Origin: Pelagibacteraceae bacterium AG-390-C22
GTDB lineage: Bacteria; Pseudomonadota; Alphaproteobacteria; Pelagibacterales; Pelagibacteraceae
NCBI GenBank assembly: GCA_003278125.1
Contig: QCGX01000007.1
Coordinates: 418 to 64,417 of the forward strand
Direction: 5' to 3'
DNA: 64,000 nucleotides
Shown here in pieces: positions 14,633 through 64,000 of the stretch; the first letter of the stretch is position 1; each line of letters starts with the position of its first letter. The notes beneath the pieces are model-generated. The model made no database searches and was not told where the DNA came from. It saw only the letters and a list, made by a program, of their open reading frames with translations. A program made the translations under genes and the position numbers.

Positions 14633-14669
14633 TTATTGATTATATACGAAAAGAATTTCTTTTAATATT

Positions 14670-15287
14670 TTATCTAGAATAATATTCTATAACAAGATTT
14701 GGTTCCATTATAACAGGATAAGGCACTTCTGAGAATTTTGGAATTCTTACAAGCTTTGCGGTCTTATTTTTATCATCCAATTGAATATACTCCGGCACTT
14801 CTCTTTCTTTGCTTTGAAGAGCGCCATCTATAAAAGTTAGTTTTTTAGATTTTTCTCTAACTTCAATTAAATCAGTATCTTTTACTAAATAACTTGAAAT
14901 ATTAACTTTTTTTTTATTAACTCTAATATGACCATGATTAATCATTTGCCGAGCAGAAAAAACAGTTGTAGCGAACTTGGCTCTGTAAATTACTGTGTCT
15001 AACCTACTTTCAAGCAATGCAACTAAATTCTCAGTGGTGTCACCTTTCTTTGCTAGAGCTTTTCTATAAATATTTCTGAATTGTCTCTCATTTATATTTC
15101 CGTAATAAGCTTTGAGTTTTTGTTTAGCTTGTAATTGAATTCCATAATCTGTTGGTTTCCCTTTTTTACTTTGTCCGTGCTGCCCTGGAGGGTATGCTCT
15201 TGAGTTGAAAGGGCTCTTTGGTCTGCCCCATAGATTTGCTTTTAACCTACGATCAACTTTATGTTTAGATTTAAGTCTTTTTGTCAT
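14670..15287 (-). CDS. rpsD: 30S ribosomal protein S4
   Basis: [31 protein letters not shown] and the S4 RNA-binding domain [11 protein letters not shown]. Confidence 0.97.
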
Positions 15288-15327
15288 ATTTAAATGATGA
15301 GTGTTTATAAGGTTTCAGGGGGTATTG

Positions 15328-16056: not shown

Positions 16057-17650
16057 TTAGATTAGCTGGGGCTTTTTCCTTGTATAGCTTATAGTCTAAA
16101 CTATCTATTAACGCTTTAAATGAGGCTTCAATAATGTTTGGAGAAACTCCAACAGTAAACCAACTCATTCCTGTTTTATCTGTGCTTTCTATTAAAACTC
16201 TAGTAGTTGCTTCTGTTCCAGTATTTAAAATTCTTACTTTATAGTCTAATAATTTTAAATCAGAAAAAAAATTATAATATTTTTCAACTTTTTTAAAATT
16301 TGATCTGATTGCATTATCTAACGCGTTAACTGGACCATTCCCTTCACCGTTACATTCAATATTTTTTCCATCAATTAAAAAAACAACATTTGCTTTGGTC
16401 TTAATTGTATCTGATTTAGCAACACTGACATTATAACTTTTAACTTTAAGATATTCAGGGACTTTCCCTAAAAGTCTATTAGCTAGAAGTTCAAAGGAAG
16501 CGTCTGCTCCATCATAAGAATATCCACTAAATTCCCTATCCTTTACTTCATCTAAAATTTTTTGGACTTTAGGATCTTGTGAGTCTATTTTTACTCCATA
16601 TTTTTCTAATCTAGATAAAATATTTGATCTTCCAGCTTGATTAGAGACGATAATGTTTCTGTGATTTCCTACCATTTTAGGATCGACATGCTCATAAGTC
16701 TTAGGATCTTTTTTTACTGCTGAAACGTGCAAACCACCTTTGTGTGAAAAAGCAGAGGCTCCAACATAAGCCATATTTTTATTTGGCTTTCTATTCAGAA
16801 TTTCGTCTAAAAGTCTTGAGCATTCTGTTAACGAAGATAACTTTTCTTTTTTAATCCCAACATCAAACTTATCTTTAAATGATTTTTTTAAACATAATGT
16901 AGGAATTATTGACATTAAATTGGCATTACCACATCTTTCCCCTAAACCATTTATGGTGCCTTGAATGTGTCTTGCGCCAGCCTCAACAGCTGCCAAAGAA
17001 TTTGCTACTGCATTTTCTGTATCATTGTGAGCATGAATACCAAGATTTTTCCCTGGAATTTCTTTTGATACTTTAGATACAATTTCTTTTATCTCGTTTG
17101 GCAAAGTTCCTCCATTGGTATCACAAAGAACCAACCACCTAGCTCCAGAGTCGTATGCTTGTTTTAAACAACTTAATGCATAATTTGGATTAGCTTTATA
17201 TCCATCAAAAAAATGTTCGGCATCAAATAAAAATTCTTTTTTATTTCTAACAAAGTGTTTAGCTGTTTCCTTAATATTTTCCAAATTTTCTTCGTTTTTA
17301 ATGCCTAGTGCTACTTTCACATGAAAATCCCATGTCTTTCCAACAACACATACTGCTGGAGAATTTGCGTTCATTAAAGATGCTAAGCCCGGATCATTAT
17401 CAGCGCTTCTGCCTGTCTTTTTTGTCATACCAAAAGCAGTAAAAATACTTTTTTTTAACTGAGGGGGGTTAGAAAAAAATTTAGTATCATTAGGATTGGC
17501 TCCAGGCCAGCCTCCTTCAATATAATCTACACCGATATCCGATAAAACATTCGCAATTTTATTTTTATCTTCTATGGAAAAATCTACACCCTCAGTTTGA
17601 GCTCCATCTCTAAGAGTAGTATCAAATATATAAATTTTTTCTTTGTTCAT
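16046..17650 (-). CDS. cimA: (R)-citramalate synthase / 2-isopropylmalate synthase family
   Basis: IFDTTLRDGAQTEGV, HAHNDTENAVANSLAAV, and a C-terminal LeuA-dimer-type regulatory domain. I prefer ATG 17650 (ATGA overlap with the cysS stop) over the track's TTG at 17662. Confidence 0.85.
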   Translation of the reverse strand: MNKEKIYIFDTTLRDGAQTEGVDFSIEDKNKIANVLSDIGVDYIEGGWPGANPNDTKFFSNPPQLKKSIFTAFGMTKKTGRSADNDPGLASLMNANSPAVCVVGKTWDFHVKVALGIKNEENLENIKETAKHFVRNKKEFLFDAEHFFDGYKANPNYALSCLKQAYDSGARWLVLCDTNGGTLPNEIKEIVSKVSKEIPGKNLGIHAHNDTENAVANSLAAVEAGARHIQGTINGLGERCGNANLMSIIPTLCLKKSFKDKFDVGIKKEKLSSLTECSRLLDEILNRKPNKNMAYVGASAFSHKGGLHVSAVKKDPKTYEHVDPKMVGNHRNIIVSNQAGRSNILSRLEKYGVKIDSQDPKVQKILDEVKDREFSGYSYDGADASFELLANRLLGKVPEYLKVKSYNVSVAKSDTIKTKANVVFLIDGKNIECNGEGNGPVNALDNAIRSNFKKVEKYYNFFSDLKLLDYKVRILNTGTEATTRVLIESTDKTGMSWFTVGVSPNIIEASFKALIDSLDYKLYKEKAPANLNEK

Positions 17651-18997
17651 TTTAATTTCCAAACTGTTTTATCTTTTTGATCTTCTATTAGAATACCTTT
17701 ATCCAATAAATCCTTTCTTATTTGATCTGCTAAAGTAAAATTTTTATCTTTTTTTGCTTTAGTTCTCTCAGTTATTTTCTTTAGGATATAATCCTCTGAA
17801 ACTTTAATATTAGACTTCTTTATATTTTCCCATTTTTCTTTACTAGTATTAAATAAGCCTATTAATTTACAAGCATTATTAAATAATGATTTGCTTTTTT
17901 TATCTCCGTTGTTAGCATTATTATATAGTTCATGTATTTTAGCTATAAAACCTGGTGTATTTAAATCATCTAATAATGTTTCTGAAATATCTAAAATATC
18001 TTCATCTTTTGTTTCTTCGTAAAGATTGTACCATTTATCAATTGTATTCTTTTGATTTTGTAAAAGTTCATCATTCCAATCTAAAGGCTGACTATAATGA
18101 GCACTTAATAAAGCTAATCTTACAACTTCCCCTGAATATTTTTTCACGGCTTGAGAAATTGTAATTATATTACCTAAAGATTTAGACATCTTTTCATTAT
18201 TAAATGTAACAAATCCATTATGAACCCAATAATTTGCAAAACTATCGCTAGAATTGTTGCTACAGGACTGAGCAATTTCATTTTCATGATGAGGAAAAAT
18301 TAAATCTAAACCTCCGCCATGAATATCAAAATTTTTTCCTAGGTATTTTTCACTCATAACTGAACATTCTAAATGCCAGCCAGGTCTACCTCTTCCCCAC
18401 GGTGAATCCCATCCTGGATCGTCATTATCGGAGGGTTTCCATAAAACAAAATCCATTGGGTTTTTTTTTAAGATCTGAAACTTCTACTCTACTTCCGGCT
18501 TTTAATTCCTCTAAATTTTTGTTTGATAATTTTCCGTAATTTTTAAATGAATTTACTGAAAAATACACGTGACCTTTATTTTCATAAGCAAAACCCTTAG
18601 AAATTAAAGAGGAAGACATTTCTATCATTTCTTTAATGTGCTCAGTGGCTTTAGGTTCTACAGTAGGTTTCAAACAATTTAAACTTTTACAATTTTCATG
18701 AAAAACTTTTGTAACATCGCTTGTGATTTCGTTGATATCTTTTTTATTTCTTTTAGAAGCTTCAATTATTTTATCATCAACATCAGTTATATTTCTTACA
18801 TAGTTTACATTTGGGCCATATATTGCTTTCAACACTCTAAACAAAACATCAAATACCACAAGACTACGAGCATTACCTACATGAGGGTTATCATAAACTG
18901 TGGGACCACAAGCATATAAAGAAACCTTATTTGGGTTAATGGGTTTAAAAACTTCCTTTTTTCTTGATAAAGAATTAGTTAGTTGGAGACTACTCAT
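17647..18997 (-). CDS. cysS: Cysteine--tRNA ligase, reading frame interrupted by one extra A in an A9 run (two ORFs: 18425..18997 and 17647..18456)
   Basis: The N-terminal ORF has YACGPTVYDNPHVGNAR (HIGH). The C-terminal ORF has MDFVLWKPS, GRPGWHLECS and KMSKS. Deleting one A restores ...LKKNPMDFVLWK... Confidence 0.9.
18461..18469 (-). other. A9 homopolymer (T9 on + strand) at the cysS frame break; candidate slippage site or sequencing-error site
   Basis: Minus strand reads CTT AAA AAA AAA CCC AAT GGA. Frame 0 stops 13 codons later, and the continuing CysS frame is +1. Confidence 0.85.
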
Positions 18998-19727
18998 TAA
19001 ATTTGCAAACTGGTATTGGATTCATTTTGTGTAAATTTTTTTCTCTTATTTCTAAATATTTTTTATAATTAGGATCATTTTTATTTTCCATAGCTTTTTC
19101 AAGATCCTCATAGCTCATTCCAAGTTGCTGAACATCGTTCCTTCCATCATCCCACAAACCGTCTGTTGGAGGAGTATTTATTATATCATCTGATATACCA
19201 AGATGTCTTCCGAGTTCCCAAACTTGTGTTTTAGTACAATCAGCTATTGGAGAAATATCAACTCCTCCATCACCGTATTTAGTATAAAAACCGACGCCAA
19301 AATCTTCAACTTTATTTCCTGTCCCCACAACTATTCCATTGTTAGCAGCAGCTACTTGATACAAAGTCGCCATTCTCAATCTTGCTCTAGAATTTGCATA
19401 TCCATGTTCATTGTCAAATTTATTTAAAACTTGAGAAAAGGAGTTAAAAATTTTATCCATTTCTATTAAATGGTGTTCAACATTTTTGTATTTTTCTTTT
19501 AACCATTTAGCGTGAGATATGCTTAAGTCATGTTGAGATTTTATTTGCTTGATTGGCATCGTTAACACAATTGTTTTACGTCCAGTATTTGCACATAATG
19601 TACTAACTACAGAAGAGTCGATTCCTCCAGAAATTCCAACAATTAAAGTCTTTGGTTTATAAGATTGAGAATCACAATAATTATTGATCCAATCTGAGAT
19701 AATTTTTGCTCTTTTTTTTACATCCAT
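18990..19727 (-). CDS. nadE: NH3-dependent NAD+ synthetase
   Basis: PP-loop GISGGIDSSVV. 245 aa with no glutaminase domain. Confidence 0.9.
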   Translation of the reverse strand: MDVKKRAKIISDWINNYCDSQSYKPKTLIVGISGGIDSSVVSTLCANTGRKTIVLTMPIKQIKSQHDLSISHAKWLKEKYKNVEHHLIEMDKIFNSFSQVLNKFDNEHGYANSRARLRMATLYQVAAANNGIVVGTGNKVEDFGVGFYTKYGDGGVDISPIADCTKTQVWELGRHLGISDDIINTPPTDGLWDDGRNDVQQLGMSYEDLEKAMENKNDPNYKKYLEIREKNLHKMNPIPVCKFNE

Positions 19728-19779
19728 AACTAGTATCTACCTCTCTTTTAAGGTCTGCTCTTAATAATTTCAATAATTA

Positions 19780-21162
19780 TTAAGACGCTGCTTTAATAAT
19801 ATTTTTTGAATATTTAGAATTTTTCTTTATTTCTTCAGAAATTAAGAAAGCTAGCTCTAAAGCTTGTGATGCGTTTAATCTAGGATCACAATGAGTTCTA
19901 TATCTATTGGATAAATCGCTATCCGATATTTTTTGAGCTCCGCCAGTACATTCTGTGACATCTTGGCCAGTCATTTCAACATGTAAACCTCCTGCATAAG
20001 TGCCTTCGGCTTGATGGATGCCAAATACATTTTTTACTTCTTTTAAGACATTATCAAAAGGTCTTGTTTTCAATCCACTAGTTGCTTTTATAGTGTTGCC
20101 GTGCATTGGGTCACATGACCAAATTACATTTAATCCTTCTTTTTTAACTGCTTTAATTAATTTTGGCAAAAACTCTTCGGCTTTGTTTGCTCCAAATCTA
20201 GAAATTAAAGTAAGTCTTCCAGCTTCATTATCAGGATTTAAAATATTACAAAGTTTTATTAGTTCATCAGGCTTAAGAGATGGTCCGCATTTTAACCCTA
20301 TAGGATTTTTAATACCTCTACAAAATTCAACATGTGCTCCATCTGGTTGTCTTGTTCTATCTCCAATCCAAACAAAATGTGCAGATGTATCGTGATATTC
20401 TCCAGTTGTTGAGTCAACTCTTGTCATGGCCTCTTCAAAAGGAAGTAAAAGGGCTTCGTGTGATGTATAAAAATTAACTGTTCTTAATCTTCTATTATTT
20501 TCAGGAGTTATTCCACAAGCTTCCATAAAAGATAAGGCATCACTAATCTTATCTTCTATCTCTTTATATTTCCCTTTTGTTTTTTTGTTAATAAAACCTA
20601 AGTTCCACAAATGCACCTGTCTTAAATCTGCAAATCCTCCTTGTGAAAATGCTCTAATTAAATTTAGTGTAGATGCTGACTGAGCATAAGCTCTAAATAA
20701 TCTTTTTGCATCTGGAATTCTTGCTTTTTCAGAAAATTCCATTCCATTAATATTATCACCTAAATAACTAGGTAGCTCTTTACCATCTTTTTTTTCGACC
20801 GGAGAGCTTCTTGGTTTTGAAAATTGACCAGCAATTCTTCCGACTTTAATTACTGGCATTGATGCTGAATGAGTCAAAACTAGAGACATTTGAAGAATAG
20901 CTTTAAATGTATCTCTTATATTATCAGGATTAAACTCTTCGAAACTTTCAGCACAATCTCCTCCTTGTAATAAGAAAGCTTTACCCTTAACAACTTCTGC
21001 TAAAGATTTTTTCAAAGATCTTGTTTCTCCGGCAAAAACTAATGGTGGATATTTTTTTACTTTACTTAATACTAAATCCAATTCTTTTTTATCCTGATAT
21101 TCAGGTAAGTGTTTTGCAGGATATTTAGTCCAACTATTTAAATTCCATTTTTTCATATTCAA
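19780..21162 (-). CDS. 3-deoxy-7-phosphoheptulonate (DAHP) synthase, class II (plant-like)
   Basis: 460 aa with W..NSW...PA.HLPEY at the N-terminus, GRIAGQFSKPRS and WIGDRTRQPDGAHVEF, typical of class II DAHPS. Confidence 0.9.
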   Translation of the reverse strand: MNMKKWNLNSWTKYPAKHLPEYQDKKELDLVLSKVKKYPPLVFAGETRSLKKSLAEVVKGKAFLLQGGDCAESFEEFNPDNIRDTFKAILQMSLVLTHSASMPVIKVGRIAGQFSKPRSSPVEKKDGKELPSYLGDNINGMEFSEKARIPDAKRLFRAYAQSASTLNLIRAFSQGGFADLRQVHLWNLGFINKKTKGKYKEIEDKISDALSFMEACGITPENNRRLRTVNFYTSHEALLLPFEEAMTRVDSTTGEYHDTSAHFVWIGDRTRQPDGAHVEFCRGIKNPIGLKCGPSLKPDELIKLCNILNPDNEAGRLTLISRFGANKAEEFLPKLIKAVKKEGLNVIWSCDPMHGNTIKATSGLKTRPFDNVLKEVKNVFGIHQAEGTYAGGLHVEMTGQDVTECTGGAQKISDSDLSNRYRTHCDPRLNASQALELAFLISEEIKKNSKYSKNIIKAAS

Positions 21163-21217
21163 CCTGAGATATATATAAGTTATAAAAAAGACTTTTTAAA
21201 GACTTTTAAAAAAAAAA

Positions 21218-23035
21218 TTACTCTACAGTGACAGATTTAGCTAAATTTCTTGGTTTATCTATATCGCAACCTTTTAATAAAGCAACATGATAAGCCAATA
21301 ACTGAACGGGTATGGTGAGCAGTATGGGAGAAAGTAAATTGTCTAGAGAAGGAACTCTAATACCAAATCTTATATTTTCATTAATTAATTCTTTTTTATG
21401 GTCTGTAATAAATAAAATCTTTCCTCCTCTTGCAATGACTTCTTGCATATTCGAAAGAGTTTTCTCAAAATATTTATCTTTTGGGGCTAATACAATTACT
21501 GGTAAACCTTCTTCGATTAGAGCTAAAGGCCCATGTTTCATTTCTCCTGCTGGATAACCCTCAGCGTGTAAATAAGACAGTTCTTTCAACTTCAGTGCTC
21601 CTTCGAGAGCAATTGGAAAGGATAGACCTCTTCCTAAAAACATAGATCCTTTTGCATCAAGGAATTCTTTTGCCATCGCTTGAATGCTGTTTTCTACTTT
21701 CAAACTTTTTTTGATTGCTTCTGGAAGAGTTTTTAAGTTTTTTATATTAGTTTGATAAGATGAGTTGCTTATATCTTTTCTGATTTGAGCTAATTTTAAA
21801 CATAAAATATAAAGAACTAACATTTGACCTAAAAAAGCTTTTGTTGACGCCACTCCAATCTCTGGACCCGCATGAATAGGAAGAACCCAATCAGAACTTC
21901 TTGCTATTGTGCTTTCTACAGAGTTCACAACAGAGCAAGTTTTTACCTTATTTTTTTTACATATATCTAATGCTGCTGCTGTATCAGCAGTTTCACCAGA
22001 TTGAGAAACAAAAACATATAAGTTGTTAGAGTTAAATTTTAATTTTCTGTATCTAAACTCTGAAGCTATATCAATTTCAACATCAATAGTTGTAAGTTCT
22101 TCAAACCAGTATTTTGCCACAAGGCATGAATGGTAAGCTGTCCCGCACCCTATTAAAATAATCTTATTAATTTTTTCTGGTTTAATTGGAAAATTATAAA
22201 TATTGATATCTTTTTTTAAACTATCAGTATATTCATTTATACAATTTTTTGCTGTAATTGATTGTTCAAATATCTCTTTTGACATAAAATTTTTATAATC
22301 GCCCTTATCACTAGTATTTTTATCATCAGATAAAATGTGTACTTTTTTATTAATTTTTTTTTTCTTTACATCATAAAATTCAACCTTGTCTTTAGATAGG
22401 ACACACAAGTCTCCATCATCTAAATAAGAAATTTTATTGGTCATAGATTTAAGTGCATAAGAGTCTGAGCCAAGATAATTTTCTATATTTGAATAACCTA
22501 CAGCTAGCGGACTTCCTCTTCGCGCTCCTATAATAATATTCTTATAGTTCTTAAAGATAATACCTAAAGCAAAACTTCCTTTTAATTGTTTAAGTGTATT
22601 AAAAACTGATTCTAAAGGTTTGTTGTCTTTTAGGGCTTCTGTAATTAATAGTGTTATAACTTCTGTATCTGTCTGAGATTTAAACTTTAAGCCTTTTGAC
22701 TCTAATTTTTTTTTTAATTCATCTGAATTTTCAATTATTCCATTATGAACTACTGATACAATTTCTGAAGAATGAGGATGAGCATTTAAAATGTTTGGCA
22801 CGCCATGTGTAGCCCATCTCACGTGACCAATGCCAAGATGTCCATTAGATGGAGATTTAAATAAAATTTTTTCTAACTCCTCTACTCTACCTGAACATTT
22901 TTTTTCACTTATTTCATCATTGTCTAGTGTAGCCAGACCAGCTGAGTCGTACCCTCTGTATTCTAGTTTTTTTAATGAATTTATAATATTCATTGAAACT
23001 GGTTTATTACTAGCTATTCCTATAATTCCACACAT
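21218..23035 (-). CDS. glmS: Glutamine--fructose-6-phosphate aminotransferase
   Basis: MCGIIG N-terminal nucleophile, two SIS domains, and the C-terminal KPRNLAKSVTVE. Confidence 0.97.
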   Translation of the reverse strand: MCGIIGIASNKPVSMNIINSLKKLEYRGYDSAGLATLDNDEISEKKCSGRVEELEKILFKSPSNGHLGIGHVRWATHGVPNILNAHPHSSEIVSVVHNGIIENSDELKKKLESKGLKFKSQTDTEVITLLITEALKDNKPLESVFNTLKQLKGSFALGIIFKNYKNIIIGARRGSPLAVGYSNIENYLGSDSYALKSMTNKISYLDDGDLCVLSKDKVEFYDVKKKKINKKVHILSDDKNTSDKGDYKNFMSKEIFEQSITAKNCINEYTDSLKKDINIYNFPIKPEKINKIILIGCGTAYHSCLVAKYWFEELTTIDVEIDIASEFRYRKLKFNSNNLYVFVSQSGETADTAAALDICKKNKVKTCSVVNSVESTIARSSDWVLPIHAGPEIGVASTKAFLGQMLVLYILCLKLAQIRKDISNSSYQTNIKNLKTLPEAIKKSLKVENSIQAMAKEFLDAKGSMFLGRGLSFPIALEGALKLKELSYLHAEGYPAGEMKHGPLALIEEGLPVIVLAPKDKYFEKTLSNMQEVIARGGKILFITDHKKELINENIRFGIRVPSLDNLLSPILLTIPVQLLAYHVALLKGCDIDKPRNLAKSVTVE

Positions 23036-23682
23036 TATTTTTTCTTTTTTCTTTTATAATTTTTAACATCAATTTGGGGTGATCTTGTGATCGCTAATGA
23101 ATTTTTTTTAACATTTCTAGTAATCACAGATCCTGCACCAATTGTAGAATTTTTTTCTAATTTAACAGGAGCTACTAAAGATGAATTAGAACCTACAAAA
23201 ACATTATCAGATATTTTGGTTTTATGTTTTTTAACTCCATCATAATTACAAGTTATTGTACCCGCTCCTATATTAGAATTTTTTCCTATTATTGTATCGC
23301 CAATATAGGAAAGATGATTTATTTTTGAGTTAGTGTTGATTGTCGCTTTTTTTGTTTCAACAAAATTTCCAATCTTAGCATTAGATTTTAAAATAGTGCC
23401 CGGTCTCAATCTTGCATATGGTCCTACTACTACATTCTTTTCAATTTTAGTTCCTTCGATGTGGGTAAAAGATTTTATATAAGCATTGTCTCCAATTTTT
23501 ACTTTTGAACCAATCACAACGTAGGGTTCAATAGTTACATTTTTTCCAAAAATAGTATCTTTAGATAAATAGATGCTTTCCGGCGCGATTAAATTTACTC
23601 CTTTTGAAAGAGCTTTATTTCTAAGTTTTTCCTGCACTGCTCTATAAGCATAAGCTTTTTTTAATTTATTATTTGTATTCAT
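23035..23682 (-). CDS. Glucosamine-1-phosphate N-acetyltransferase: stand-alone C-terminal (LbetaH) half of GlmU
   Basis: 215 aa. It starts in the helical arm that links the two GlmU domains and continues through hexapeptide repeats (NHLSYIGDTIIGKNSNIGAGTITCNYDG). No uridylyltransferase domain is present, and a divergent gene starts 70 bp upstream. Confidence 0.8.
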   Translation of the reverse strand: MNTNNKLKKAYAYRAVQEKLRNKALSKGVNLIAPESIYLSKDTIFGKNVTIEPYVVIGSKVKIGDNAYIKSFTHIEGTKIEKNVVVGPYARLRPGTILKSNAKIGNFVETKKATINTNSKINHLSYIGDTIIGKNSNIGAGTITCNYDGVKKHKTKISDNVFVGSNSSLVAPVKLEKNSTIGAGSVITRNVKKNSLAITRSPQIDVKNYKRKKKK

Positions 23683-23752
23683 AAAAATTTCTCTTTACAT
23701 TAATAATGCTTTTGAAATAAGTCACAAAATATTTCTTTTTAATACTTTAAAA

Positions 23753-24415
23753 ATGACTCAAATTTACACAATTCTTTTTGATTTAGACGGAACTTTAGTT
23801 GATACCGCTCCAGATTTGATGGATGCACATAACCATGTAATGAAAAAATTTGGACATAAAGAAAAAAAATTATCTGACATTAAATCTTTAGCAGGTAAAG
23901 GTGCTTGGGTAATGATGCAAAGATCCTTTAGGCAAGAAATAGAAAATGAAAAATTGAAAAAAGAAATGACTAAAGAGTTTGTTGATTTCTATTCTCAAAA
24001 TATTGATCGAGGTAGTAAGCCAATCAATGGTGTAATGGAATTTTTAAAATGGGCTAAAAGTAAAAATATTTCCATGGCCGTTTGCACTAATAAACAGGAG
24101 CGTCTGGCGGTTGATTTATTAAAAAAATTAAAAATGTATGATTATTTTGAATACATTGCTGGTTCAGATACTTTTTCATTCAATAAACCGGATCCTAGGC
24201 ATTTAACAAATGTAGTTGAAATCATTCAAGGTGATATAAAAAAAACAATAATGATTGGAGATAGTGAAGTTGATGGAAAATCAGCAGAGAATGCGAACAT
24301 ACCTTTTGTTTTAGTAAAAGATGGTTACACTGAAAAATCATCTGAAGAGATCAAACACGATGAGCTAATCAAAGATTTTAAAAATTTTGATAAAATAATT
24401 GAAAAATATTTATGA
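23753..24415 (+). CDS. gph: HAD-superfamily phosphatase (phosphoglycolate phosphatase-like)
   Basis: FDLDGTLVDT motif I, CTNK motif II, and GDSEVD motif IV. Confidence 0.75.
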   Translation: MTQIYTILFDLDGTLVDTAPDLMDAHNHVMKKFGHKEKKLSDIKSLAGKGAWVMMQRSFRQEIENEKLKKEMTKEFVDFYSQNIDRGSKPINGVMEFLKWAKSKNISMAVCTNKQERLAVDLLKKLKMYDYFEYIAGSDTFSFNKPDPRHLTNVVEIIQGDIKKTIMIGDSEVDGKSAENANIPFVLVKDGYTEKSSEEIKHDELIKDFKNFDKIIEKYL

Positions 24416-25011
24416 TAAATTTTGCTTTATTTTCTGCTTTATCAGCATTCTATTTTACAATGTTTATAACCCCGGGACCCAATAACGCAATGCTAACTAC
24501 TTCAGGAATGAAGTTTGGTTTTATTAAAACATTACCTCACCTAATAGGTATTCCTTTGGGCCATATATTTCAAATTGCTTTAGTATGCTTTGGTTTTGCA
24601 AACCTTTTTCTTATTTACCCTCAAATACAAGTTTATATGAAAATATTATGTTTCTTATATTTGCTTTATCTAAGTTGGAAAATGATTGGTTCTTTTAGTC
24701 TTGATAAAAAAGATTCAGGAAGACCTTTAAAATTTTATGAAGCATCACTCTTTCAATTTATAAATCCTAAAGCATGGTCTATCGCAATTGCTGTAGCATC
24801 AGGATTTTTTCCAACAGAGGAGAATATCTTTATTGGCATTTCATTTGTAACTATAACTGCTGCGATTATATGTTTTCCTTCTATAAGTTTGTGGGCTCTT
24901 TTTGGAAGTGGATTAAGAGCATTTATCAACAATGAAAAAATAAAAAAAATGACAGAATATTTTCTTGCTTTGCTATTAGTTTTAACTGGATTATTTATTT
25001 TAATTAAATAA
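24412..25011 (+). CDS. LysE/RhtB family amino-acid exporter
   Basis: 199 aa with six TM helices, an N-terminal TPGPNN motif and FINPKAW. ATGA overlap with gph. Confidence 0.8.
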   Translation: MINFALFSALSAFYFTMFITPGPNNAMLTTSGMKFGFIKTLPHLIGIPLGHIFQIALVCFGFANLFLIYPQIQVYMKILCFLYLLYLSWKMIGSFSLDKKDSGRPLKFYEASLFQFINPKAWSIAIAVASGFFPTEENIFIGISFVTITAAIICFPSISLWALFGSGLRAFINNEKIKKMTEYFLALLLVLTGLFILIK

Positions 25012-55082: not shown

Positions 55083-56123
55083 TTATTTCATGATCGAAGA
55101 GGCAAAATTCCAATTACAGTCAAAACTTGGTATATAAGCACCTGAAACTTTTACGTTGCCAAAACTTTTATCTAGCACTTTACACCAATTTTCTACCTGC
55201 TTTGGTTTCTTGTCTTTGCTACCTACCTGAGCGGTAATAATCCCACCTTTTTTTAGTATTCTCTTAAGACCCTTCATATTCTTTTTGGCTAGATCAATAC
55301 AATACTGATCATCATTTAAATCTACAAAAATTTTATCATATTTAGAGTCTTCTATTGATTTAATGCTCTCAAAAGCATCTCCCCAGAAAGTTTTGACTTT
55401 ATTACTTTTCTTAACTTTAGAGCAAACTTTTGGAAGGTGTTTAAAACAAGTTTCTACAATTTCTGGGTCTAGTTCATACCAGTCTATATAATTGGCATTA
55501 TTTTCTAGACATTCTCTAGCGACTCCACCATCACCTCCTCCTATAATAGCAACATTCGAATTCTTTTTACTTAAATCATAACTAGATTTAAAAAAGTTAG
55601 AACTATAAATTTTCTCATCTTTTTCAGCCACTTGAATTTCATGGTCAATAAATAGAGCATTTCCAAACTCTTCCAGCTTCATGATCTCAACGAACTGACC
55701 TACTTTTGATGTAAAAGTTTCAAGTACATCATTCACAACGTAAAATTTTTTCTGACCCGGGGTGCTATAAATATCATCATACAGACCCACGCTGCTTCTA
55801 TCGAAACTATTAGTTACAACTCTTTCATGTTGAATTTCTTTTTTTAATATTTTTAAAGCAATCTTAGGATGAACTTTGCCACAAGTAAAAAAGTCAAAAC
55901 TAATAACCTCTCTTTCAGGAAAAGTATGAAAACTAAAATGACTTTCTGCTAGTAAAGCAACTAAAGTAAAACCCTGGGGTTCAAATTTATGAGTGCTAAC
56001 ATTGAGTATTTCAACTTTTGCTGCTTTAGCAATTTTATAGATTACTTTTTCATAGAAAGAAGTAGAATAGTCTTTCTTTACACCTAGAAAATCTATTGTG
56101 ATATGCTCACCTACTTTTATCAT
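55083..56123 (-). CDS. Fusion protein: pyruvoyl S-adenosylmethionine decarboxylase (N-terminal ~110 aa) + aminopropyltransferase/spermidine synthase
   Basis: N-terminus: GEHITIDF, the LLAE|SHFSFHTFPE self-processing site (E60-S61), and FDFFTCG. C-terminus: LFIDHEIQVAEKDEKIY and IIGGGDGGVARE (SAM/dcSAM site). Confidence 0.8.
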   Translation of the reverse strand: MIKVGEHITIDFLGVKKDYSTSFYEKVIYKIAKAAKVEILNVSTHKFEPQGFTLVALLAESHFSFHTFPEREVISFDFFTCGKVHPKIALKILKKEIQHERVVTNSFDRSSVGLYDDIYSTPGQKKFYVVNDVLETFTSKVGQFVEIMKLEEFGNALFIDHEIQVAEKDEKIYSSNFFKSSYDLSKKNSNVAIIGGGDGGVARECLENNANYIDWYELDPEIVETCFKHLPKVCSKVKKSNKVKTFWGDAFESIKSIEDSKYDKIFVDLNDDQYCIDLAKKNMKGLKRILKKGGIITAQVGSKDKKPKQVENWCKVLDKSFGNVKVSGAYIPSFDCNWNFASSIMK

Positions 56124-56129
56124 TAAAAA

Positions 56130-56774
56130 TTACCCTCTTTTATAATTTTTAAACTTACCTAAAACAATTTTCATTTCTTTTTTTGAAAGAATTTTAGGTA
56201 TTCCGATTCTTAGGGCATTTATATATTGATGGCAAATATTTTCTATTTCTTGAGCAAGCTCAAAAGCTTTCACAATATCATCTCCAAAAGCAACTTGACC
56301 GTGATTAGCAATTAAACATGCAGACCTACCTTTAAGAGCTTTAATAATATTTCTTGATAAATTTTTGGTTCCAAACGTAGCGTATTTACTGCATTTTATG
56401 TCTTCTCCGCCAGCAACTGCAACCATATAGTGAAAGGCTGGAATATTTTTTTGATGAGTTGAGATGGCAGTTGCACACGTTGAATGCGCATGAACTATGG
56501 CTTTAGCCTCTTTTTTATTCACATAAATATCTTGATGAAATCTCCATTCAGAGGAAGGTTTTCCTTTTTTTTTATCAAAAACGCCCTTTAAAGAAACAAA
56601 CACAATATCTTTGGTTTTTAAAGATGAATACTTTCTACCTGATGGAGTTATATAGAAACCATCTACGCCCTTTTCTTTAGCTCTTGCTGATATATTTCCT
56701 GATCTTAAGGCAGATAAATTGGTAATGTTTAATTTTTTTGAAAACTTTATAACTTCAGCTTTTAACTTGCTCAC
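56130..56774 (-). CDS. Class II aldolase/adducin-family protein, FucA-like (candidate 5-methylthioribulose-1-phosphate aldolase or dehydratase)
   Basis: GTG start overlapping the upstream TAG by 1 nt. PSSEWRFHQDIY, VHAHS, IPAFHYMVAVAGG, YATFGT and LGKFKNY align block-for-block with E. coli FucA as I remember it. Confidence 0.8.
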   Translation of the reverse strand: MSKLKAEVIKFSKKLNITNLSALRSGNISARAKEKGVDGFYITPSGRKYSSLKTKDIVFVSLKGVFDKKKGKPSSEWRFHQDIYVNKKEAKAIVHAHSTCATAISTHQKNIPAFHYMVAVAGGEDIKCSKYATFGTKNLSRNIIKALKGRSACLIANHGQVAFGDDIVKAFELAQEIENICHQYINALRIGIPKILSKKEMKIVLGKFKNYKRG

Positions 56775-57904
56775 TATAATAAATTATCTTTAAAAAATTT
56801 AATAAATTGAGGCATATAAGCATCTGCGTTATCTCCTCCTATGGTAACTCCTTTTGAAATACATTTTTCTTTTTTCATAATTTTAAAACCAGATTTCCAT
56901 GCTTTTCTTGGATCCTTTTGAGCCATTTCATAAAACGCTTCTACTGAAGGGTAAACTTTGTGTTTATTTACCATCCACTCTACCCATATCGGATTAGTAA
57001 ATCGACCTTCGTTATCAACATAAAAATCAGGACAATCATGAAGAGTCATTGCCATTTTTTCTCTCCAAGGTTTTTTGCCAGCAGCCCAAGCATGATACCA
57101 TCCCTCCTTAATATCAACTTTTACTTTTCCTGGCGGAGATTTAATTCTTTCAGCATGCTCCTTACAAAACTTGGCTAAAGTGTAATCATCTGCGCCACCA
57201 TGCACTACAAGCATTGTTGTATTAGATGTTAATTCTGGTTCTGCAAAAAACCCCGCCATCCTACATTCTGCTGCTTCTGGAAGAATTGCATCAAAACCTT
57301 TTGTGCCTCCAAGAAACTTGGATGTAAGTTTAACGTCTGCTAAGAAAAAAGAATTAGTTCCACCCCTTGAATGACCGGTTGTTCCAAATTTTCCATTAGA
57401 TCTTGAATGAGATTGTAAAACTTTTAAGGCCATTAATGCATCAATTGCTCCATTTATTAGAGGAACTTTAGATTGATCCCTCCATGTAGATCTGGCGCCT
57501 CTTGGACAAAAATTATCTATATACATTACGCCTATACCTTCTTTCAAAAGATTTTGTGTAGAATGATAAACAAAATCATCCCAAACATAATCTCCAGGAC
57601 CACCGCTACTATGGGTGTGGATTACTATTGGAACTTTACCTGTTCCTTTTGGTAATTGAAGATATCCTGTAATTTCAATAGGATTATTTAAATGACCGTC
57701 TATTAAAACTGTTCTTTGATCAAATCCAGTATAAGAATTGAATTTTATTATTTCACCGCCTTCATAACCTTTTAATTTAGCAATGCCTTGAAGCATTGAA
57801 TGTTTTTTCCTACAGTTTTTTTTAGAGTCAAAATTTGGAGATGAATGAGCTAATAAGCTAGTTGAAAATAAAACTGAAAATATTATTAATAGTATTTTTC
57901 TCAT
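56774..57904 (-). CDS. Secreted alpha/beta-hydrolase-fold protein (dienelactone hydrolase / PAF-acetylhydrolase-like)
   Basis: Start moved to ATG 57904 (MRKILLIIFSVLFSTSLLAHS signal peptide). Nucleophile elbow GHSRGG, then VVHGGADD and WYHAW. Confidence 0.6.
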   Translation of the reverse strand: MRKILLIIFSVLFSTSLLAHSSPNFDSKKNCRKKHSMLQGIAKLKGYEGGEIIKFNSYTGFDQRTVLIDGHLNNPIEITGYLQLPKGTGKVPIVIHTHSSGGPGDYVWDDFVYHSTQNLLKEGIGVMYIDNFCPRGARSTWRDQSKVPLINGAIDALMALKVLQSHSRSNGKFGTTGHSRGGTNSFFLADVKLTSKFLGGTKGFDAILPEAAECRMAGFFAEPELTSNTTMLVVHGGADDYTLAKFCKEHAERIKSPPGKVKVDIKEGWYHAWAAGKKPWREKMAMTLHDCPDFYVDNEGRFTNPIWVEWMVNKHKVYPSVEAFYEMAQKDPRKAWKSGFKIMKKEKCISKGVTIGGDNADAYMPQFIKFFKDNLL

Positions 57905-57915
57905 TAAAATATTAT

Positions 57916-59118
57916 TTATAATATATGATCTTTCATAAAAAGTGAAAAATTTTTTTTGATATAATCTAAATCTTTTTTGTTGAGTCCATGATGGCATCCT
58001 ATCAAAACACCGTTACGCATTATATTATTGCTATTTGACTCTGCATTTTTAACTTTTTTGTAAAGTCTTTTTTTCATTATGGGCTGTCTTAATATATTTC
58101 CTGTGAAGATAGTTCTTGTTTGAATTCCTTTTTTTTCTAAAAAAATTTGTAATTTTTGTCTGTTTAATTTTACTCCATTTTTTATGATAATTGGATATGC
58201 TAACCATGCGGTGATAAGGCCTTTTTGTTGGGAAGGTAACTCAAAATAATTAGGAAAGTTTGAAAAAAAATTTTTTAAATTAACAAAATTACTATTTCTC
58301 TTTTTTATACTTTTTGGAAGTTTTTTTAATTGTTCTAATGCGAAAGCTGCAGATATTTCTGATGGTAAAAAATTATATCCCATATCTGAGAATATATATT
58401 TTCCGTCATATGGTATGCCGTCAACTTTTATGTTGAACCTCTTATTTATACCTTCAGACTCATTAAATATTGCCGATGACCTACCCCATCCTCTAAGAAG
58501 TTTTGCTCTTTCATAAGTTTTTTTATCATTAAAACAAACCATACCACCAAATCCAGCTCCTGTTATTATATGTGAAGCATACATACTGTTAGTAGTGATG
58601 TCCGAATATTTTCCAAGGTTTTTATTGTGAACCCGATATCCAATAGTATCAGCAGAGTCTTCGATTAGTTTTATGTTTTTCTTTTTCGCTATTTGAAAAA
58701 TATGTTTCCAATTAGGTACATTTCCTAATAAGTTTGGAACCATTATAGCTTTCGTTTTTTTATTAATTGCGTTTTTAATTTGATCAATTTTTGCAACAAA
58801 TGAATTACTTTCAACATCAATAAAATGAGGTGTTAAACCCAATTGATAAATTGGTGCAACAGTTGTTGAAAAAGTTAAAGTTGGAGTTATAACCTCATCT
58901 CCTTTTTTAAGATTTAATGATGCAAGAGCTAATAAATTAGCCGACGATCCTGAGTTAACCATCAAACCATATTTTTTCCCGAACAATTTAGAAATTTTTT
59001 TTTCTAATTCCTTTACTAAAGGACCGTCTATAAGCGTTAAAGACTTACTTTTTAGTACAGAAAGTGATGCATTAATTTCTTTTTTGTCGTATATGGCTTT
59101 ACCGTAATATATTTTCAT
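57916..59118 (-). CDS. DegT/DnrJ/EryC1 fold PLP/PMP enzyme of the RfbH(E1)/ColD sugar 3-dehydratase type
   Basis: VNSGSSANLLAL, GDEVITP, IEDSADTIG. The SMYASHIIT block has His183 (codon 58570-58572) where aminotransferases carry the Schiff-base Lys. LLRGWGRSS also present. Confidence 0.75.
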   Translation of the reverse strand: MKIYYGKAIYDKKEINASLSVLKSKSLTLIDGPLVKELEKKISKLFGKKYGLMVNSGSSANLLALASLNLKKGDEVITPTLTFSTTVAPIYQLGLTPHFIDVESNSFVAKIDQIKNAINKKTKAIMVPNLLGNVPNWKHIFQIAKKKNIKLIEDSADTIGYRVHNKNLGKYSDITTNSMYASHIITGAGFGGMVCFNDKKTYERAKLLRGWGRSSAIFNESEGINKRFNIKVDGIPYDGKYIFSDMGYNFLPSEISAAFALEQLKKLPKSIKKRNSNFVNLKNFFSNFPNYFELPSQQKGLITAWLAYPIIIKNGVKLNRQKLQIFLEKKGIQTRTIFTGNILRQPIMKKRLYKKVKNAESNSNNIMRNGVLIGCHHGLNKKDLDYIKKNFSLFMKDHIL

Positions 59119-60185
59119 TTAAATATTTTTCTCAAACCTTTTTCAGATGCTTCGCAAATTCCTTTTTCTGTGATTAAACCAGTAACATATTTTGCTGGGG
59201 TGATGTCAAATGCTAAATTTAAAGCTTTGCTTTTTTCTGGATAGATTCTTACTGTTGCGACATTATTATTTTCATCAACTCCTTCTACATGGGATAGTTC
59301 TTCAGAGTTTCTTTCCTCTATAGGAATTTTTTTAAAATCTTTGATGCTCCAGTCTATAGTCGAGCTTGGAAGTGCTACGTAAAAAGGAACATTGTTATCT
59401 TTCGCAGCTAAAGCCTTTAAATATGTTCCAATTTTATTTGCTACATCTCCTGTCGATAAAGTTCTGTCAGTTCCTACAATGCATAAGTCGACTTCACCTC
59501 TTTGCATTAAAATTCCTCCTGCATTGTCAGTAATAATTGTATTTGGTATCCCTTCTTCATTTAACTCATAAGAAGTTAGATTGGCACCTTGATTTCTTGG
59601 TCTTGTTTCATCCACCCAAACATGAACTTTAATTCCTTTTTGATGAGCATGATAAATAGGTGAAGTAGCTGTTCCCCAATCAATTGTTGCAAGCCAACCA
59701 GCGTTGCAATGGGTTAAAATATTTACTGTATCTTTTTTTTTACTGGCTATTTCTTGAATTATCTTTAAGCCATTTTCACCTATGCTTTTACAAAATGCAA
59801 CGTCCTCTTCTACAATCGCCTTAGCTTCCTCTAAAGCTACTTTTAAAATTTCATCACTATTTATGCCAGATAATTTTTTTATCATTCTATCTACTGCCCA
59901 TTTTAAATTAATTGCCGTAGGTCTAGAAGATATTAAATCTTCACTGGATTTTTTTAAAAAAGATTGGTCATTCTTTTCAATAATAGATAAAACTATCCCA
60001 TAAGCAGCCGTAGCCCCAATTAAAGGAGCTCCTCTTACTTCCATTGTTTTAATTGCGTTAATTGAATCTTTAACTGTTTTTAAATCTTTAATAATAAATT
60101 GATGAGGCAGCTTTGTTTGATCTATTATCTTTACTGTATTATTTTCAAACCAAATTGTTCTATAGGCTTTACCGTTAATTTGCAT
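59115..60185 (-). CDS. mtnA: S-methyl-5-thioribose-1-phosphate isomerase
   Basis: eIF-2B-like family: IIDQTKLPH, MEVRGAPLIGATAAYG, CNAG, ETRPRNQG, VGTDR. I prefer ATG 60185 (MQINGKAYRTIWFENN) over 60212. Confidence 0.9.
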   Translation of the reverse strand: MQINGKAYRTIWFENNTVKIIDQTKLPHQFIIKDLKTVKDSINAIKTMEVRGAPLIGATAAYGIVLSIIEKNDQSFLKKSSEDLISSRPTAINLKWAVDRMIKKLSGINSDEILKVALEEAKAIVEEDVAFCKSIGENGLKIIQEIASKKKDTVNILTHCNAGWLATIDWGTATSPIYHAHQKGIKVHVWVDETRPRNQGANLTSYELNEEGIPNTIITDNAGGILMQRGEVDLCIVGTDRTLSTGDVANKIGTYLKALAAKDNNVPFYVALPSSTIDWSIKDFKKIPIEERNSEELSHVEGVDENNNVATVRIYPEKSKALNLAFDITPAKYVTGLITEKGICEASEKGLRKIFK

Positions 60186-61062
60186 TATTTTTAATAAGTG
60201 CTCTTCCTGCAATATGTTTTAATTTTTTTATAGTTTTTTTGGATCTTAATTTTGGATCTGTAATGATAGCGGTATCTAAACAATTATTTGCAGGATCTTT
60301 ATCTATTGAAAAATCTTTAAAAGTTTTGATAATTTCTTTAATCATGTTTTGTGCATTTGAAGCATTTTTTTGCAATGTTTGAACTACCATTGCTACATCA
60401 ACTTCATCATGATCTGGATGCCAACAATCATAATCAGTTACCATAGCGACTGTGCAATATCTAATTTCTGCTTCTCTGGCTAATTTTGCTTCAGGCATAT
60501 TTGTCATTCCAATCACGTCTGAATTCCATGATCTATATAAATTAGACTCTGCTAAAGTAGAAAATTGAGGACCTTCCATTACAACATAAGTTCCACCAAT
60601 TTGATGATTAATATTCAATTTTTTCAATGCTACCTCGCAACATTGAGATAGACCAGGACTAGTTGGTTTAGCCATTGAAACATGAGCTACAATTTCTTCA
60701 TCAAAAAAAGTTTTTACTCTTGAAAAAGTTCTATCAATGAATTGATCAACAATTACAAATTTTCCCGGATTAAGATCTTCCTTTAAAGAACCAACTGCTG
60801 AGACAGAAATAATATCAGTTACTCCTAATTGTTTCATAGCGTCTATATTTGCTCTAAAATTTATTTTAGTAGGATTGATTTTATGTCCTCTTGAATGTCG
60901 AGGGATAAAACAAATTTCTTCTTTTCCTAATTTTGCTATTAGAATTTCATCGGATGGTTTTCCCCAAGGAGTATTAATTTTTTTCCATTTAGTCTTTTCA
61001 AAGCCTTCCATTTTATAAAGACCACTACCACCAATTATCCCAAGTTTTCTTTTTTTCATCAT
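60175..61062 (-). CDS. mtnP: S-methyl-5'-thioadenosine phosphorylase
   Basis: LGIIGGSG, FIPRHSRGH, GPQFST and VIGMTNMPEAKLAREAE, typical of MTAP-type PNP. Confidence 0.9.
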   Translation of the reverse strand: MMKKRKLGIIGGSGLYKMEGFEKTKWKKINTPWGKPSDEILIAKLGKEEICFIPRHSRGHKINPTKINFRANIDAMKQLGVTDIISVSAVGSLKEDLNPGKFVIVDQFIDRTFSRVKTFFDEEIVAHVSMAKPTSPGLSQCCEVALKKLNINHQIGGTYVVMEGPQFSTLAESNLYRSWNSDVIGMTNMPEAKLAREAEIRYCTVAMVTDYDCWHPDHDEVDVAMVVQTLQKNASNAQNMIKEIIKTFKDFSIDKDPANNCLDTAIITDPKLRSKKTIKKLKHIAGRALIKNNAN

Positions 61063-61102: not shown

Positions 61103-61630
61103 ATGGATTTAAAAAAATATATCAGATCTATTCCAGACTACCCTAAAAAAGGCATTTTATTCCGAGATATTACTACTCTAATTAAAAATCCTGAGGCCTT
61201 TAAATATACAAATGACAAGATAATAGAATTATCAAAAAAATTAGAATTTGATAAAGTTTCAGCTATAGAGTCTAGAGGTTTTATTTTTGCATCTACAGTG
61301 TCCTACATTTTAAACAAACCTTTTATTTTACTAAGAAAGAAAAACAAACTTCCATCAGAAACTCATTCGGTTGATTTTAAACTCGAATATGGTGAGGCAA
61401 CTATTGAAGTGCATAAAGACTCTATTTCTAAAGGAGAAAAAATCCTTGTAATAGATGACTTGATCGCTACTGGCGGAACGGCTGAAGCTGCTGGGAAATT
61501 AATAGAAATATCTGGCGGAATAGTTGCTGGATTTATTTTTGTAATTAACCTATTTGACTTAGAGGGCAATAACCTCTTAAAAAAAAAGGGATACAAAGCT
61601 GAAAGTTTAATTGAATTTCCTGGTCATTAA
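61103..61630 (+). CDS. apt: Adenine phosphoribosyltransferase
   Basis: IPDYPKKGILFRDIT and the PRPP loop VIDDLIATGGTA. The track's alternative TTG start is at 61091. Confidence 0.92.
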   Translation: MDLKKYIRSIPDYPKKGILFRDITTLIKNPEAFKYTNDKIIELSKKLEFDKVSAIESRGFIFASTVSYILNKPFILLRKKNKLPSETHSVDFKLEYGEATIEVHKDSISKGEKILVIDDLIATGGTAEAAGKLIEISGGIVAGFIFVINLFDLEGNNLLKKKGYKAESLIEFPGH

Positions 61631-62517
61631 GAATTCTTTTTTAAAAACTCTTCAATATAACTCTTTAAGCTTATTTTACCGTAATATCTATAAATTTTAT
61701 TAGATAAATTTTTTTTGACCAATGCAGAAGCATATCTTTCTCCGTCTCTAGAAGGCAAATATTTAATTTTTGTTTTAAACATTTTAGCTACTTCTAGAAC
61801 TGAATAAGCTTTTGTATTTGCTATAATATAGTGTCTGTTTAATTTTTTTTTCCAGGCTTGATAAACTATTTTAATAGTATCTTCAATATGAGTAAATCTT
61901 CTTGTTTGTGTTCCAGGTCTTACAACAGGTAGAGGTTTTTTTCTTAAATAATGATCTTCAAAGATACCTATAACCGTCGACATAAATCCCTTGGAAATTT
62001 GATTGGGTCCATACACATTATAAAAATATATAATCTCATATTTTAGATTAAAATGTCGTTTAAAATTTTCTAATTGTTCAAGATTTTTTGCTTTACTAAA
62101 AGCATAAGGAGATAAATTTTTATCTTTCCCTTTATTTCCTAATGAAGCTGATGTAGCTGAATAAATAAGTTTAATATTGTTCTTTAAACAAAAATTAAAT
62201 ACTGCGTTTGAACCAGTAAAGTTAGATTCGATACACTCATTCATTTTAAGAAAGCTCTGATAAATTCTCGCAAATTCGCCAAAATGGAAAACTGAATGAA
62301 TATACTTAGGATTTTTTACTAAACTAATAATATCTTTTGTATGACCATTTATATATTTAACTCTATTGCTTTTTATATGATTTTTTTTTGCTCCTGAAGA
62401 GTAGTTATCTAAACTAATAATGCTAAATTTTGTTTTTTTAAGTAAAAAATTAATTAGATTTGATCCTACAAATCCTGCTCCACCCGTGACTAAAATTTTT
62501 TTTTTACTATTTAACAT
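61627..62517 (-). CDS. NAD-dependent nucleotide-sugar epimerase/dehydratase (short extended SDR)
   Basis: VTGGAGFVGSNL Rossmann motif and the YAFSK catalytic YxxxK. Confidence 0.85.
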   Translation of the reverse strand: MLNSKKKILVTGGAGFVGSNLINFLLKKTKFSIISLDNYSSGAKKNHIKSNRVKYINGHTKDIISLVKNPKYIHSVFHFGEFARIYQSFLKMNECIESNFTGSNAVFNFCLKNNIKLIYSATSASLGNKGKDKNLSPYAFSKAKNLEQLENFKRHFNLKYEIIYFYNVYGPNQISKGFMSTVIGIFEDHYLRKKPLPVVRPGTQTRRFTHIEDTIKIVYQAWKKKLNRHYIIANTKAYSVLEVAKMFKTKIKYLPSRDGERYASALVKKNLSNKIYRYYGKISLKSYIEEFLKKNS

Positions 62518-63474: not shown

Positions 63475-64000
63475 ATGAAAAGGTTTATCGTAACAGGGGG
63501 GTATGGTTTTATTGGTAGTAACTTAATAAAACTATTGTTAAAAAAAAAATTTAAAGTCCTTAATATTGATAAACTATCATACTCAGCTCAAAAATATAAT
63601 TTAAAGGATATTAAAAGTAAAAACTACTTTTTCAAAAAGACTGATATTAATAATAAAAAAGAAATTTTAAAAATTCTAAAAAGATATAAACCCCACGGAA
63701 TTTTTAATTTAGCAGCAGATACTCATGTGGATAGATCAATAGACGATTCCTCTAACTTTATTAAAAATAATATTCTAGGTGTTTATAATTTACTAGAAGC
63801 TATTATAAATTATAAAAAAAAAGTTAGGCTAGTTCATATTTCTACTGATGAAGTTTATGGAGATATTTCAGGTTCAAAAAGATCTGATGAGAGTTTTCCA
63901 TATATTCCGAGCTCTCCTTATTCTGCCTCAAAAGCTTCTTCTGATCATTTGGTTAATGCTTATATTAGAACACATAAAATTGATGCTGTGATATCAAATT
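63475..64000 (+). CDS. rfbB: dTDP-glucose 4,6-dehydratase, 3' end outside the window (not in the ORF track because it has no stop)
   Basis: My translation from ATG 63475: MKRFIVTGGYGFIGSNLIKLL...NLAADTHVDRSI...HISTDEVYGD...YSASKASSDHLV. The frame is open to nt 64000. Confidence 0.88.
   Translation, partial: MKRFIVTGGYGFIGSNLIKLLLKKKFKVLNIDKLSYSAQKYNLKDIKSKNYFFKKTDINNKKEILKILKRYKPHGIFNLAADTHVDRSIDDSSNFIKNNILGVYNLLEAIINYKKKVRLVHISTDEVYGDISGSKRSDESFPYIPSSPYSASKASSDHLVNAYIRTHKIDAVISN

Follow-up and report, generated by a model that had tools for sequence, protein, structure and literature searches.

A predicted nucleotide-sugar 3-dehydratase gene beside mtnA at an insertion hot spot in a SAR11 genome

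Why would a gene of the type that deoxygenates nucleotide sugars overlap the stop codon of a gene for the recycling of 5'-methylthioadenosine (MTA)? The question is raised by a 64,000-nucleotide stretch (the window) of Pelagibacteraceae bacterium AG-390-C22 (contig QCGX01000007.1, positions 418 to 64,417), which has a G+C content of ~30% and whose close relatives are all Pelagibacterales single-cell or metagenome genomes; the group to which they belong, SAR11, is the ocean's most abundant bacterium. On the minus strand of the window, a 400-amino-acid (aa) open reading frame (ORF; 57916–59118, ATG at 59118–59116) of the DegT fold, predicted here to encode a His-type sugar 3-dehydratase, shares the four bases ATGA (59115–59118; 'tcat' on the plus strand) with the TGA stop codon of mtnA, the gene for S-methyl-5-thioribose-1-phosphate isomerase. 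A preliminary description of this DNA had noted the ORF and its overlap, both of which are read directly from the sequence, and had offered two explanations: a glycan gene inserted into a salvage operon or, as an avowed speculation, an enzyme recruited to act on a keto or aldehyde intermediate of MTA degradation. We argue for the former. Probably, the gene encodes a pyridoxamine 5'-phosphate (PMP)-dependent nucleotide-sugar 3-dehydratase for a 3,6-dideoxyhexose precursor of a variable SAR11 surface glycan, and its site beside mtnA reflects a single relocation into an insertion hot spot, with no role in MTA metabolism.

Family placement and the Schiff-base lysine position

The protein matches the Pfam family PF01041 (DegT_DnrJ_EryC1) over residues 11–389 (E 3.9e-77), and its best NCBIfam model is RfbH with 317.5 bits, compared with 191.7 bits for the PseC model. 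In phmmer searches of the PDB, it matched E1 (CDP-6-deoxy-L-threo-D-glycero-4-hexulose 3-dehydrase, also RfbH, AscC or DdhC; 3bcx, 3bb8) with 204.8 bits (2.2e-59) and ColD (GDP-4-keto-6-deoxy-D-mannose 3-dehydratase, also WbdK; 2gms, 3b8x) with 195.8 bits (1.1e-56), while the best aminotransferase reached 138 bits (4e-39). Because ColD and E1 representatives score each other at ~180–206 bits, the distance of the query to either enzyme is about the distance between the two. An AlphaFold (AF2) model of the protein (predicted local distance difference test score 96.1, predicted template modelling (TM) score 0.93) gave E1 (TM 0.91, 32–33% identity) and ColD (TM 0.86) as its best structural matches in Foldseek, so that E1 is the top match in both sequence and structure; it also has a similar ED..D..G cofactor motif.

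In E1, SpnQ and ColD, a histidine initiates the loss of the C3 hydroxyl as an acid/base catalyst (PMC8987622). Residues 178–186 of the window protein read S-M-Y-A-S-H-I-I-T, and the codon of His183 lies at 58570–58572 on the minus strand ('atg' on the plus strand, CAT on the minus). In tblastn alignments, H183 stands opposite the lysine of four Lys-type DegT paralogues from the same genome. In phmmer alignments, it corresponds to H220 of E1, matching wild-type 3bcx and being the sole position that turns into a mismatch in the H220K mutant 3bb8. A His fills this column in each of the 96 full-length sequences found among the 150 top-ranking representatives from a library of 1.8 billion proteins. 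In a 56-sequence alignment that covers ColD- and E1-cluster representatives, H183 is among 12 invariant columns; S56, G57, D154, S178, W211, N249 and R335 are likewise invariant in all three clades, those of ColD, E1 and the query. The cluster labels were assigned via PDB searches (P0258 as ColD, 503 bits to 2gms; P0240 as E1, 433 bits to 3bcx). As read from the paralogue, mutant and multiple alignments, His183 occupies the Schiff-base lysine position, and the residue and codon named in the preliminary description were correct. In the phmmer alignment to ColD, H189 rather than H188 fell opposite H183, while the multiple alignment placed the first His there; we regard this shift of one residue as alignment noise and did not rely on it.

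Next to the histidine, it is the cysteines that divide the family. E1 and SpnQ, which have a [2Fe-2S] motif of four cysteines, depend on a reductase, whereas ColD, without this motif, hydrolyses its intermediate and has its PMP regenerated by transamination (PMC8987622). In a tree rooted on the four Lys-type paralogues, the His-type proteins lie on one side (97% support in the Shimodaira–Hasegawa-like approximate likelihood ratio test, SH-aLRT), and the window protein falls in a clade of 37 rows (99%) that branches among E1-like lineages, which are its nearest. The motif WGRxCxC...C is absent in all 37 members of this clade; where E1-type proteins have it, the query reads WGRSSAIFNESEG, and its stretch WGRSSAIFNESEGINKRF at the site of the four-cysteine motif contains no Cys. 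Compared with E1, the window protein is also ~35 residues shorter at the N-terminus. The PMP enzyme ColD is, like the window protein, of the His type and free of an Fe-S cluster, but it falls into a clade of its own, which is well supported and recognizable by an HGW motif. Thus, in this tree the cysteine-less, E1-related clade stands apart both from ColD and from the Fe-S enzyme E1/RfbH. This tree and the orthologue tree described below were built in a 'quick' mode (LG+G4) with SH-aLRT as the sole measure of support, and they leave the deep order of the E1-like lineages unresolved; because no true RfbH is present in the 14 control genomes, cluster representatives were used in place of named E1 or ColD sequences. 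HMM scores, tree and predicted fold support the prediction that the gene product is a His-type, PMP-dependent nucleoside diphosphate (NDP)-4-keto-6-deoxyhexose 3-dehydratase, in line with the ColD/E1-type His-for-Lys enzyme of the preliminary description.

Genomic settings, single relocation and the mtnA–aldolase junction

Orthologues with at least 50% identity were found in 9 of the 60 other genomes in a sample of relatives, and those at 62–82% identity all lie in glycan contexts. One setting is an rml operon, with the gene order rmlB-rmlA-X-rmlC-DUF4422-rmlD-like in genome G033, where X is the orthologue (68% identical) and the NCBIfam scores are 413.5 bits for RmlB (cut-off 365), 362.9 for RmlA (cut-off 360.65) and 167.3 for RmlC (cut-off 155.75); the rmlB-rmlA-X core is also present in L041 (68% identical), L159, L164, L165 and L167. 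Another is a five-gene islet in ~60 loci, composed of a GT1 glycosyltransferase (709 aa), X, a 343-aa GT9-like protein, a methyltransferase and a GT2 glycosyltransferase, which lies between core genes, adjoins an integrase-family gene and has a variant with an extra RmlB-like short-chain dehydrogenase/reductase (SDR) and an altered gene order. The third setting is the one of the window, next to mtnA in the junction to a class II aldolase gene; it is shared by G005 (93% identity), L030 (96%), L101 and L102 (95–96%), L103–L105 (84–86%) and L124. In G016, G010, G015, G029, G022 and G033, the orthologues lie away from mtnA and the aldolase gene. In G033 and L041, a distance of a few kb separates mtnP-mtnA-aldolase from the orthologue and its rml cluster. 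Confinement of the gene to one strain was considered and rejected, as the loci at 84–96% identity carry an mtnA-linked copy. The preliminary description had named, as evidence against its own reading, a copy that is found here in this strain only and otherwise travels with dideoxyhexose genes: copies in relatives do travel with glycan genes, but the arrangement beside mtnA belongs to a subclade spanning 84–100% identity. Of the islet itself, we note that at L021:4698-11461 and in L106–L157 the 709-aa protein is a double GT1, with an aldehyde dehydrogenase gene and recJ on one side, and that the 343-aa GT9-like protein has no Pfam match.

The eight mtnA-linked rows of a 107-orthologue tree group together in a single clade (99%). 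This clade is nested in a group (96%) otherwise of the islet type, which itself lies among rows linked to rml or other glycan genes. On this phylogeny, the gene reached the mtnA–aldolase junction once, by a single relocation. The branch leading to the mtnA-linked clade has a length of 0.069 and does not exceed those of neighbouring subclades. S74D and P304A are the only two substitutions specific to the clade, and neither falls in one of the 117 columns with a conservation of 97% or more in the full set of 107 orthologues, irrespective of context; D74 lies in a G-D-E stretch that is identical in E1 and ColD in the phmmer alignments. The ratio of nonsynonymous to synonymous substitution rates is 0.037–0.064 within the mtnA-linked clade and 0.055–0.086 within the islet clade, with synonymous sites near saturation in the deeper pairs. 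Judged by these ratios, the 3-dehydratase is under the same strong purifying constraint in both settings.

The gene row on the minus strand of the window runs mtnP, mtnA (59115–60212; TIGR00512 426 bits, cut-off 279), the 3-dehydratase gene, a gene for a secreted alpha/beta-hydrolase-like protein (56774–57904), the class II aldolase gene (56130–56774) and a fusion gene of S-adenosylmethionine decarboxylase and spermidine synthase (speH-speE). The preliminary description had placed the 3-dehydratase gene between mtnA and the aldolase gene; it does adjoin mtnA, but the hydrolase gene intervenes before the aldolase gene. The hydrolase has a signal peptide and a GHSRGG motif, gave no match in Pfam or NCBIfam, and probably starts at the Met at 57904, 12 nt past the stop of the 3-dehydratase gene. 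The aldolase is fuculose-1-phosphate-aldolase-like (PF00596, E 7e-47), scores 194.8 bits with aldolase models compared with 67 bits with mtnB models, and is encoded by a core gene found in 94 of 121 genomes, including eight of eight high-quality ones. mtnA and the aldolase gene are the upstream and downstream flanks, respectively, of what we identify as a hot spot, with the hydrolase gene as a second, independent cargo.

Evidence for the hot spot comes from the same junction in relatives (window 56774–59118; L188–L196, L198–L226). In a sample of 29 aldolase loci, mtnA abuts the aldolase gene in 18 (in G033 the two overlap by 4 nt), six loci have a 0.93-kb insert, four have a 376-aa hydrolase gene (one locus not reaching mtnA), and one locus is too short to be decided. 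The check for a conserved position across SAR11 proposed in the preliminary description, when run, therefore returned an empty junction in 18/29 loci and other cargo in 10/29. The 0.93-kb insert encodes a 308-aa, hydrolase-like protein with a signal peptide and a GHSCGG motif that is unrelated to the 376-aa hydrolase. In L200 (308-aa gene at 575–1501), mtnA ends at 578 and the inserted ORF starts at 575, giving the same 4-nt ATGA overlap as in the window, and the stop of the insert meets the start of the aldolase gene. There are at least five states of occupancy: empty, 376-aa hydrolase, 308-aa hydrolase, DegT gene, and DegT gene plus 376-aa hydrolase as in the window. Of 121 genomes from the genus, 21 encode the window hydrolase at 89–95% identity (one at 62%), and in G016, G135, G010, G019, G093 and G075 the hydrolase gene occupies the mtnA–aldolase junction without the DegT gene; G016 and G010 have their DegT orthologue elsewhere, in the islet. 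A joint arrival of the hydrolase and DegT genes was considered and rejected, because L030 and L101–L105 have the DegT gene only, followed directly by the aldolase gene, while G016 and others have the hydrolase only. As a separate observation, the hydrolase gene is far from the aldolase gene in several genomes (e.g. G084, G136 and G002) and so has at least two homes.

Because the junction is often empty and unrelated hydrolases fill the slot, one of them with the same overlap, neither adjacency to mtnA nor the ATGA carries functional information. We conclude that a local insertion hot spot on the margin of a flexible glycan region accounts for the odd location of the 3-dehydratase gene. More generally, in streamlined SAR11 genomes a 4-nt overlap and adjacency in an operon can stem from hot-spot insertion and, taken alone, are no sign of shared function.

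These data also bear on recruitment to MTA degradation. According to this alternative, the mtnA-linked enzyme acts in a pathway resembling the dihydroxyacetone phosphate (DHAP) shunt, either in a PMP-dependent deoxygenation of 5-methylthioribulose-1-phosphate (MTRu-1-P) beside its C2 keto group or in the transamination of 2-(methylthio)acetaldehyde. The flanking mtnP, mtnA and fuculose-aldolase-like gene do match the layout of the DHAP shunt (MtnP, MtnA and the MTRu-1-P aldolase Ald2), but the shunt as known has no DegT-fold component and most SAR11 relatives have its three genes without a 3-dehydratase gene. The ATGA overlap, the tight and co-directional packing with mtnP, mtnA, the aldolase gene and speH-speE, and the lack of any minus-strand terminator-like site within the gene row in a terminator scan would all fit recruitment, as would the maintenance of the arrangement over 84–100% identity in at least nine loci under strong purifying selection; a promoter scan yielded 30 sites against 31.0 expected, which is the chance level. 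These points are countered by the glycan linkage of all orthologues at or below 82% identity, by the single origin of the mtnA-linked copies from within island copies, by a rate that is not accelerated, and by an active site whose conserved columns are unchanged, one of the two clade-specific substitutions, S74D, even restoring the residue of E1 and ColD. Moreover, 18 of the 29 relatives have mtnA abutting the aldolase gene, and the slot accepts unrelated hydrolases. We therefore consider recruitment very improbable, and the tempting idea of a PMP dehydratase in MTA recycling, which the preliminary description had floated, is dropped as unsupported; its other explanation, the glycan gene in a salvage operon, is borne out by the rml and glycosyltransferase neighbours of the orthologues and by the single arrival at a hot-spot junction. 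A moonlighting activity of the mtnA-linked enzyme on a shunt intermediate, deoxygenating MTRu-1-P or aminating 2-(methylthio)acetaldehyde, has in our view the slimmest chance of all; if it existed, MTA metabolism would have a new branch that conserves sulfur, in an organism unable to reduce sulfate. Of note, the core row mtnP, mtnA, class II aldolase and speH-speE (window 55083–61062) is in itself DHAP shunt-like and unlike classical methionine salvage, and we found no literature link between SAR11 and the DHAP shunt or methylthioribulose chemistry.

Proposed reaction and sugar pathway

The 3-dehydratase would draw on an NDP-4-keto-6-deoxyhexose, and a likely supplier of this substrate is encoded on the plus strand near the end of the window, where the 5' part of rmlB (dTDP-glucose 4,6-dehydratase; 63475–63999) lies 4.4 kb from the 3-dehydratase gene. 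The full rmlB ORF (L230:93-1097) scores 414.6 bits with TIGR01181 (cut-off 365) and is followed at the contig end by the start of an RmlD-like gene (L230:1069-1380). RmlC opens contig C18 (L228:1-510; 156.4 bits, cut-off 155.75) and is followed by a DUF4422 gene, the order being that of L030. The preliminary description had correctly placed the nearest sugar gene 2.5 kb away (an SDR gene at 61627–62517) and was right that no partner gene adjoins the 3-dehydratase gene, but this holds only locally: RmlB, RmlD-like and RmlC genes follow at a distance of 4.4 kb or on the next contig.

The reaction that we propose would begin with the NDP-4-keto-6-deoxyhexose from RmlB, the nucleotide most likely being dTDP. 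Enzyme-bound PMP would form a ketimine with C4 of the sugar; His183 would then abstract the proton from C4' of PMP, with expulsion of the C3 hydroxyl. The resulting ene-amine would then be hydrolysed, as in ColD, to a 4-keto-3,6-dideoxy sugar and ammonia; hydrolytic release is the most likely route because the protein lacks the [2Fe-2S] cysteine motif. Pyridoxal 5'-phosphate (PLP) would be re-aminated by L-glutamate, regenerating PMP. For both release and regeneration ColD is the likely model, because neither enzyme has an Fe-S cluster. RmlC-like and RmlD-like enzymes may then convert the product to a 3,6-dideoxy-L-hexose for use by the neighbouring glycosyltransferases. With regard to the nucleotide, the orthologues differ from both closest relatives: E1 goes with CDP genes and ColD is found in a GDP-mannose context (ManC, Gmd, ColC), whereas orthologues of the window gene go with dTDP (rml) genes or adjoin glycosyltransferase genes. 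In this respect they resemble the SpnQ-type 3-dehydratases, which act on TDP-linked 4-keto-6-deoxy sugars; the RmlA and RmlB genes beside the orthologues point to this nucleotide. SpnQ, which we compared by its published description, differs in having an Fe-S motif, a dependence on a reductase and a 2,6-dideoxy substrate (PMC8987622).

A variant of this scheme keeps the substrate but has the enzyme work reductively, like E1 and SpnQ, with electrons from a reductase or ferredoxin. The cysteine-less clade does branch among Fe-S-type E1-like lineages and not with ColD, and E1 is the best match by both measures. However, the reductive route depends on a [2Fe-2S] cluster (PMC8987622), whereas WGRxCxC...C occurs in 0 of the 37 clade members, and no gene for an E3-type reductase was seen beside any of the orthologues examined (no genome-wide search was made). 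We regard the reductive route as unlikely. A different nucleotide-sugar reaction, for instance a lysine-independent transamination or an isomerisation, is also conceivable for an uncharacterised clade with an RfbH score under the cut-off, the more so as SpnQ given PLP and glutamate can transaminate (PMC8987622). Yet the histidine and the other active-site columns are invariant across ColD, E1 and the window clade, and the G033 gene lies between rmlA and rmlC, where a 4-keto-6-deoxy intermediate would be available; we consider such a reaction quite unlikely.

Several observations weigh against a 3,6-dideoxyhexose 3-dehydratase that releases its product like ColD. The protein does not reach the RfbH equivalog cut-off (423 bits, compared with its 317.5), and the ColD clade (99%, holding P0258) leaves it out; for these two reasons the release mechanism is an extrapolation. 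For the cysteine-less clade, we found no solved or described protein. Most islet loci lack an adjacent 4,6-dehydratase gene. Glucose-1-phosphate thymidylyltransferase (RfbA) was found neither in this 90%-complete genome nor beside rmlB in the close relative L030, and the nearest candidate is a GalU-like nucleotidyltransferase on contig C10 (L229:1045-1857) with 237.7 bits, below the cut-off of 326.8. Because of this, the nucleotide carrier is uncertain; either a gap in the assembly hides the RfbA gene or the pathway uses a different nucleotide. Finally, the tightly packed mtnA-linked arrangement has been kept over 84–100% identity, which fits co-expression with the salvage genes. Even so, we hold a PMP-dependent 3-dehydratase of glycan synthesis, relocated once into a hot spot, to be the probable answer to the question posed by the overlap.

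This reading marks out a large, uncharacterised, cysteine-less branch of E1-related 3-dehydratases, which probably supplies a 3,6-dideoxyhexose to a strain-variable SAR11 surface glycan. A role in the surface glycan bears on recognition by phages and grazers and is the kind of content expected of the flexible genome; that SAR11 flexible islands are rich in glycosyltransferase and O-antigen sugar genes has already been described (PMC11796062).

The genome encodes a second His-type paralogue, on contig C6 (within 13000–25000; L227), which belongs to the ColD clade and has the motif FSFYYAHHMTT. Its neighbours in a cluster of the GDP-heptose type are GmhA, an HddA-like kinase, an HddC-GmhB fusion, a B12-binding radical S-adenosylmethionine enzyme, an RmlC-like protein, an SDR and a WecA-like transferase, a set suggestive of the synthesis of a deoxygenated or methylated heptose.

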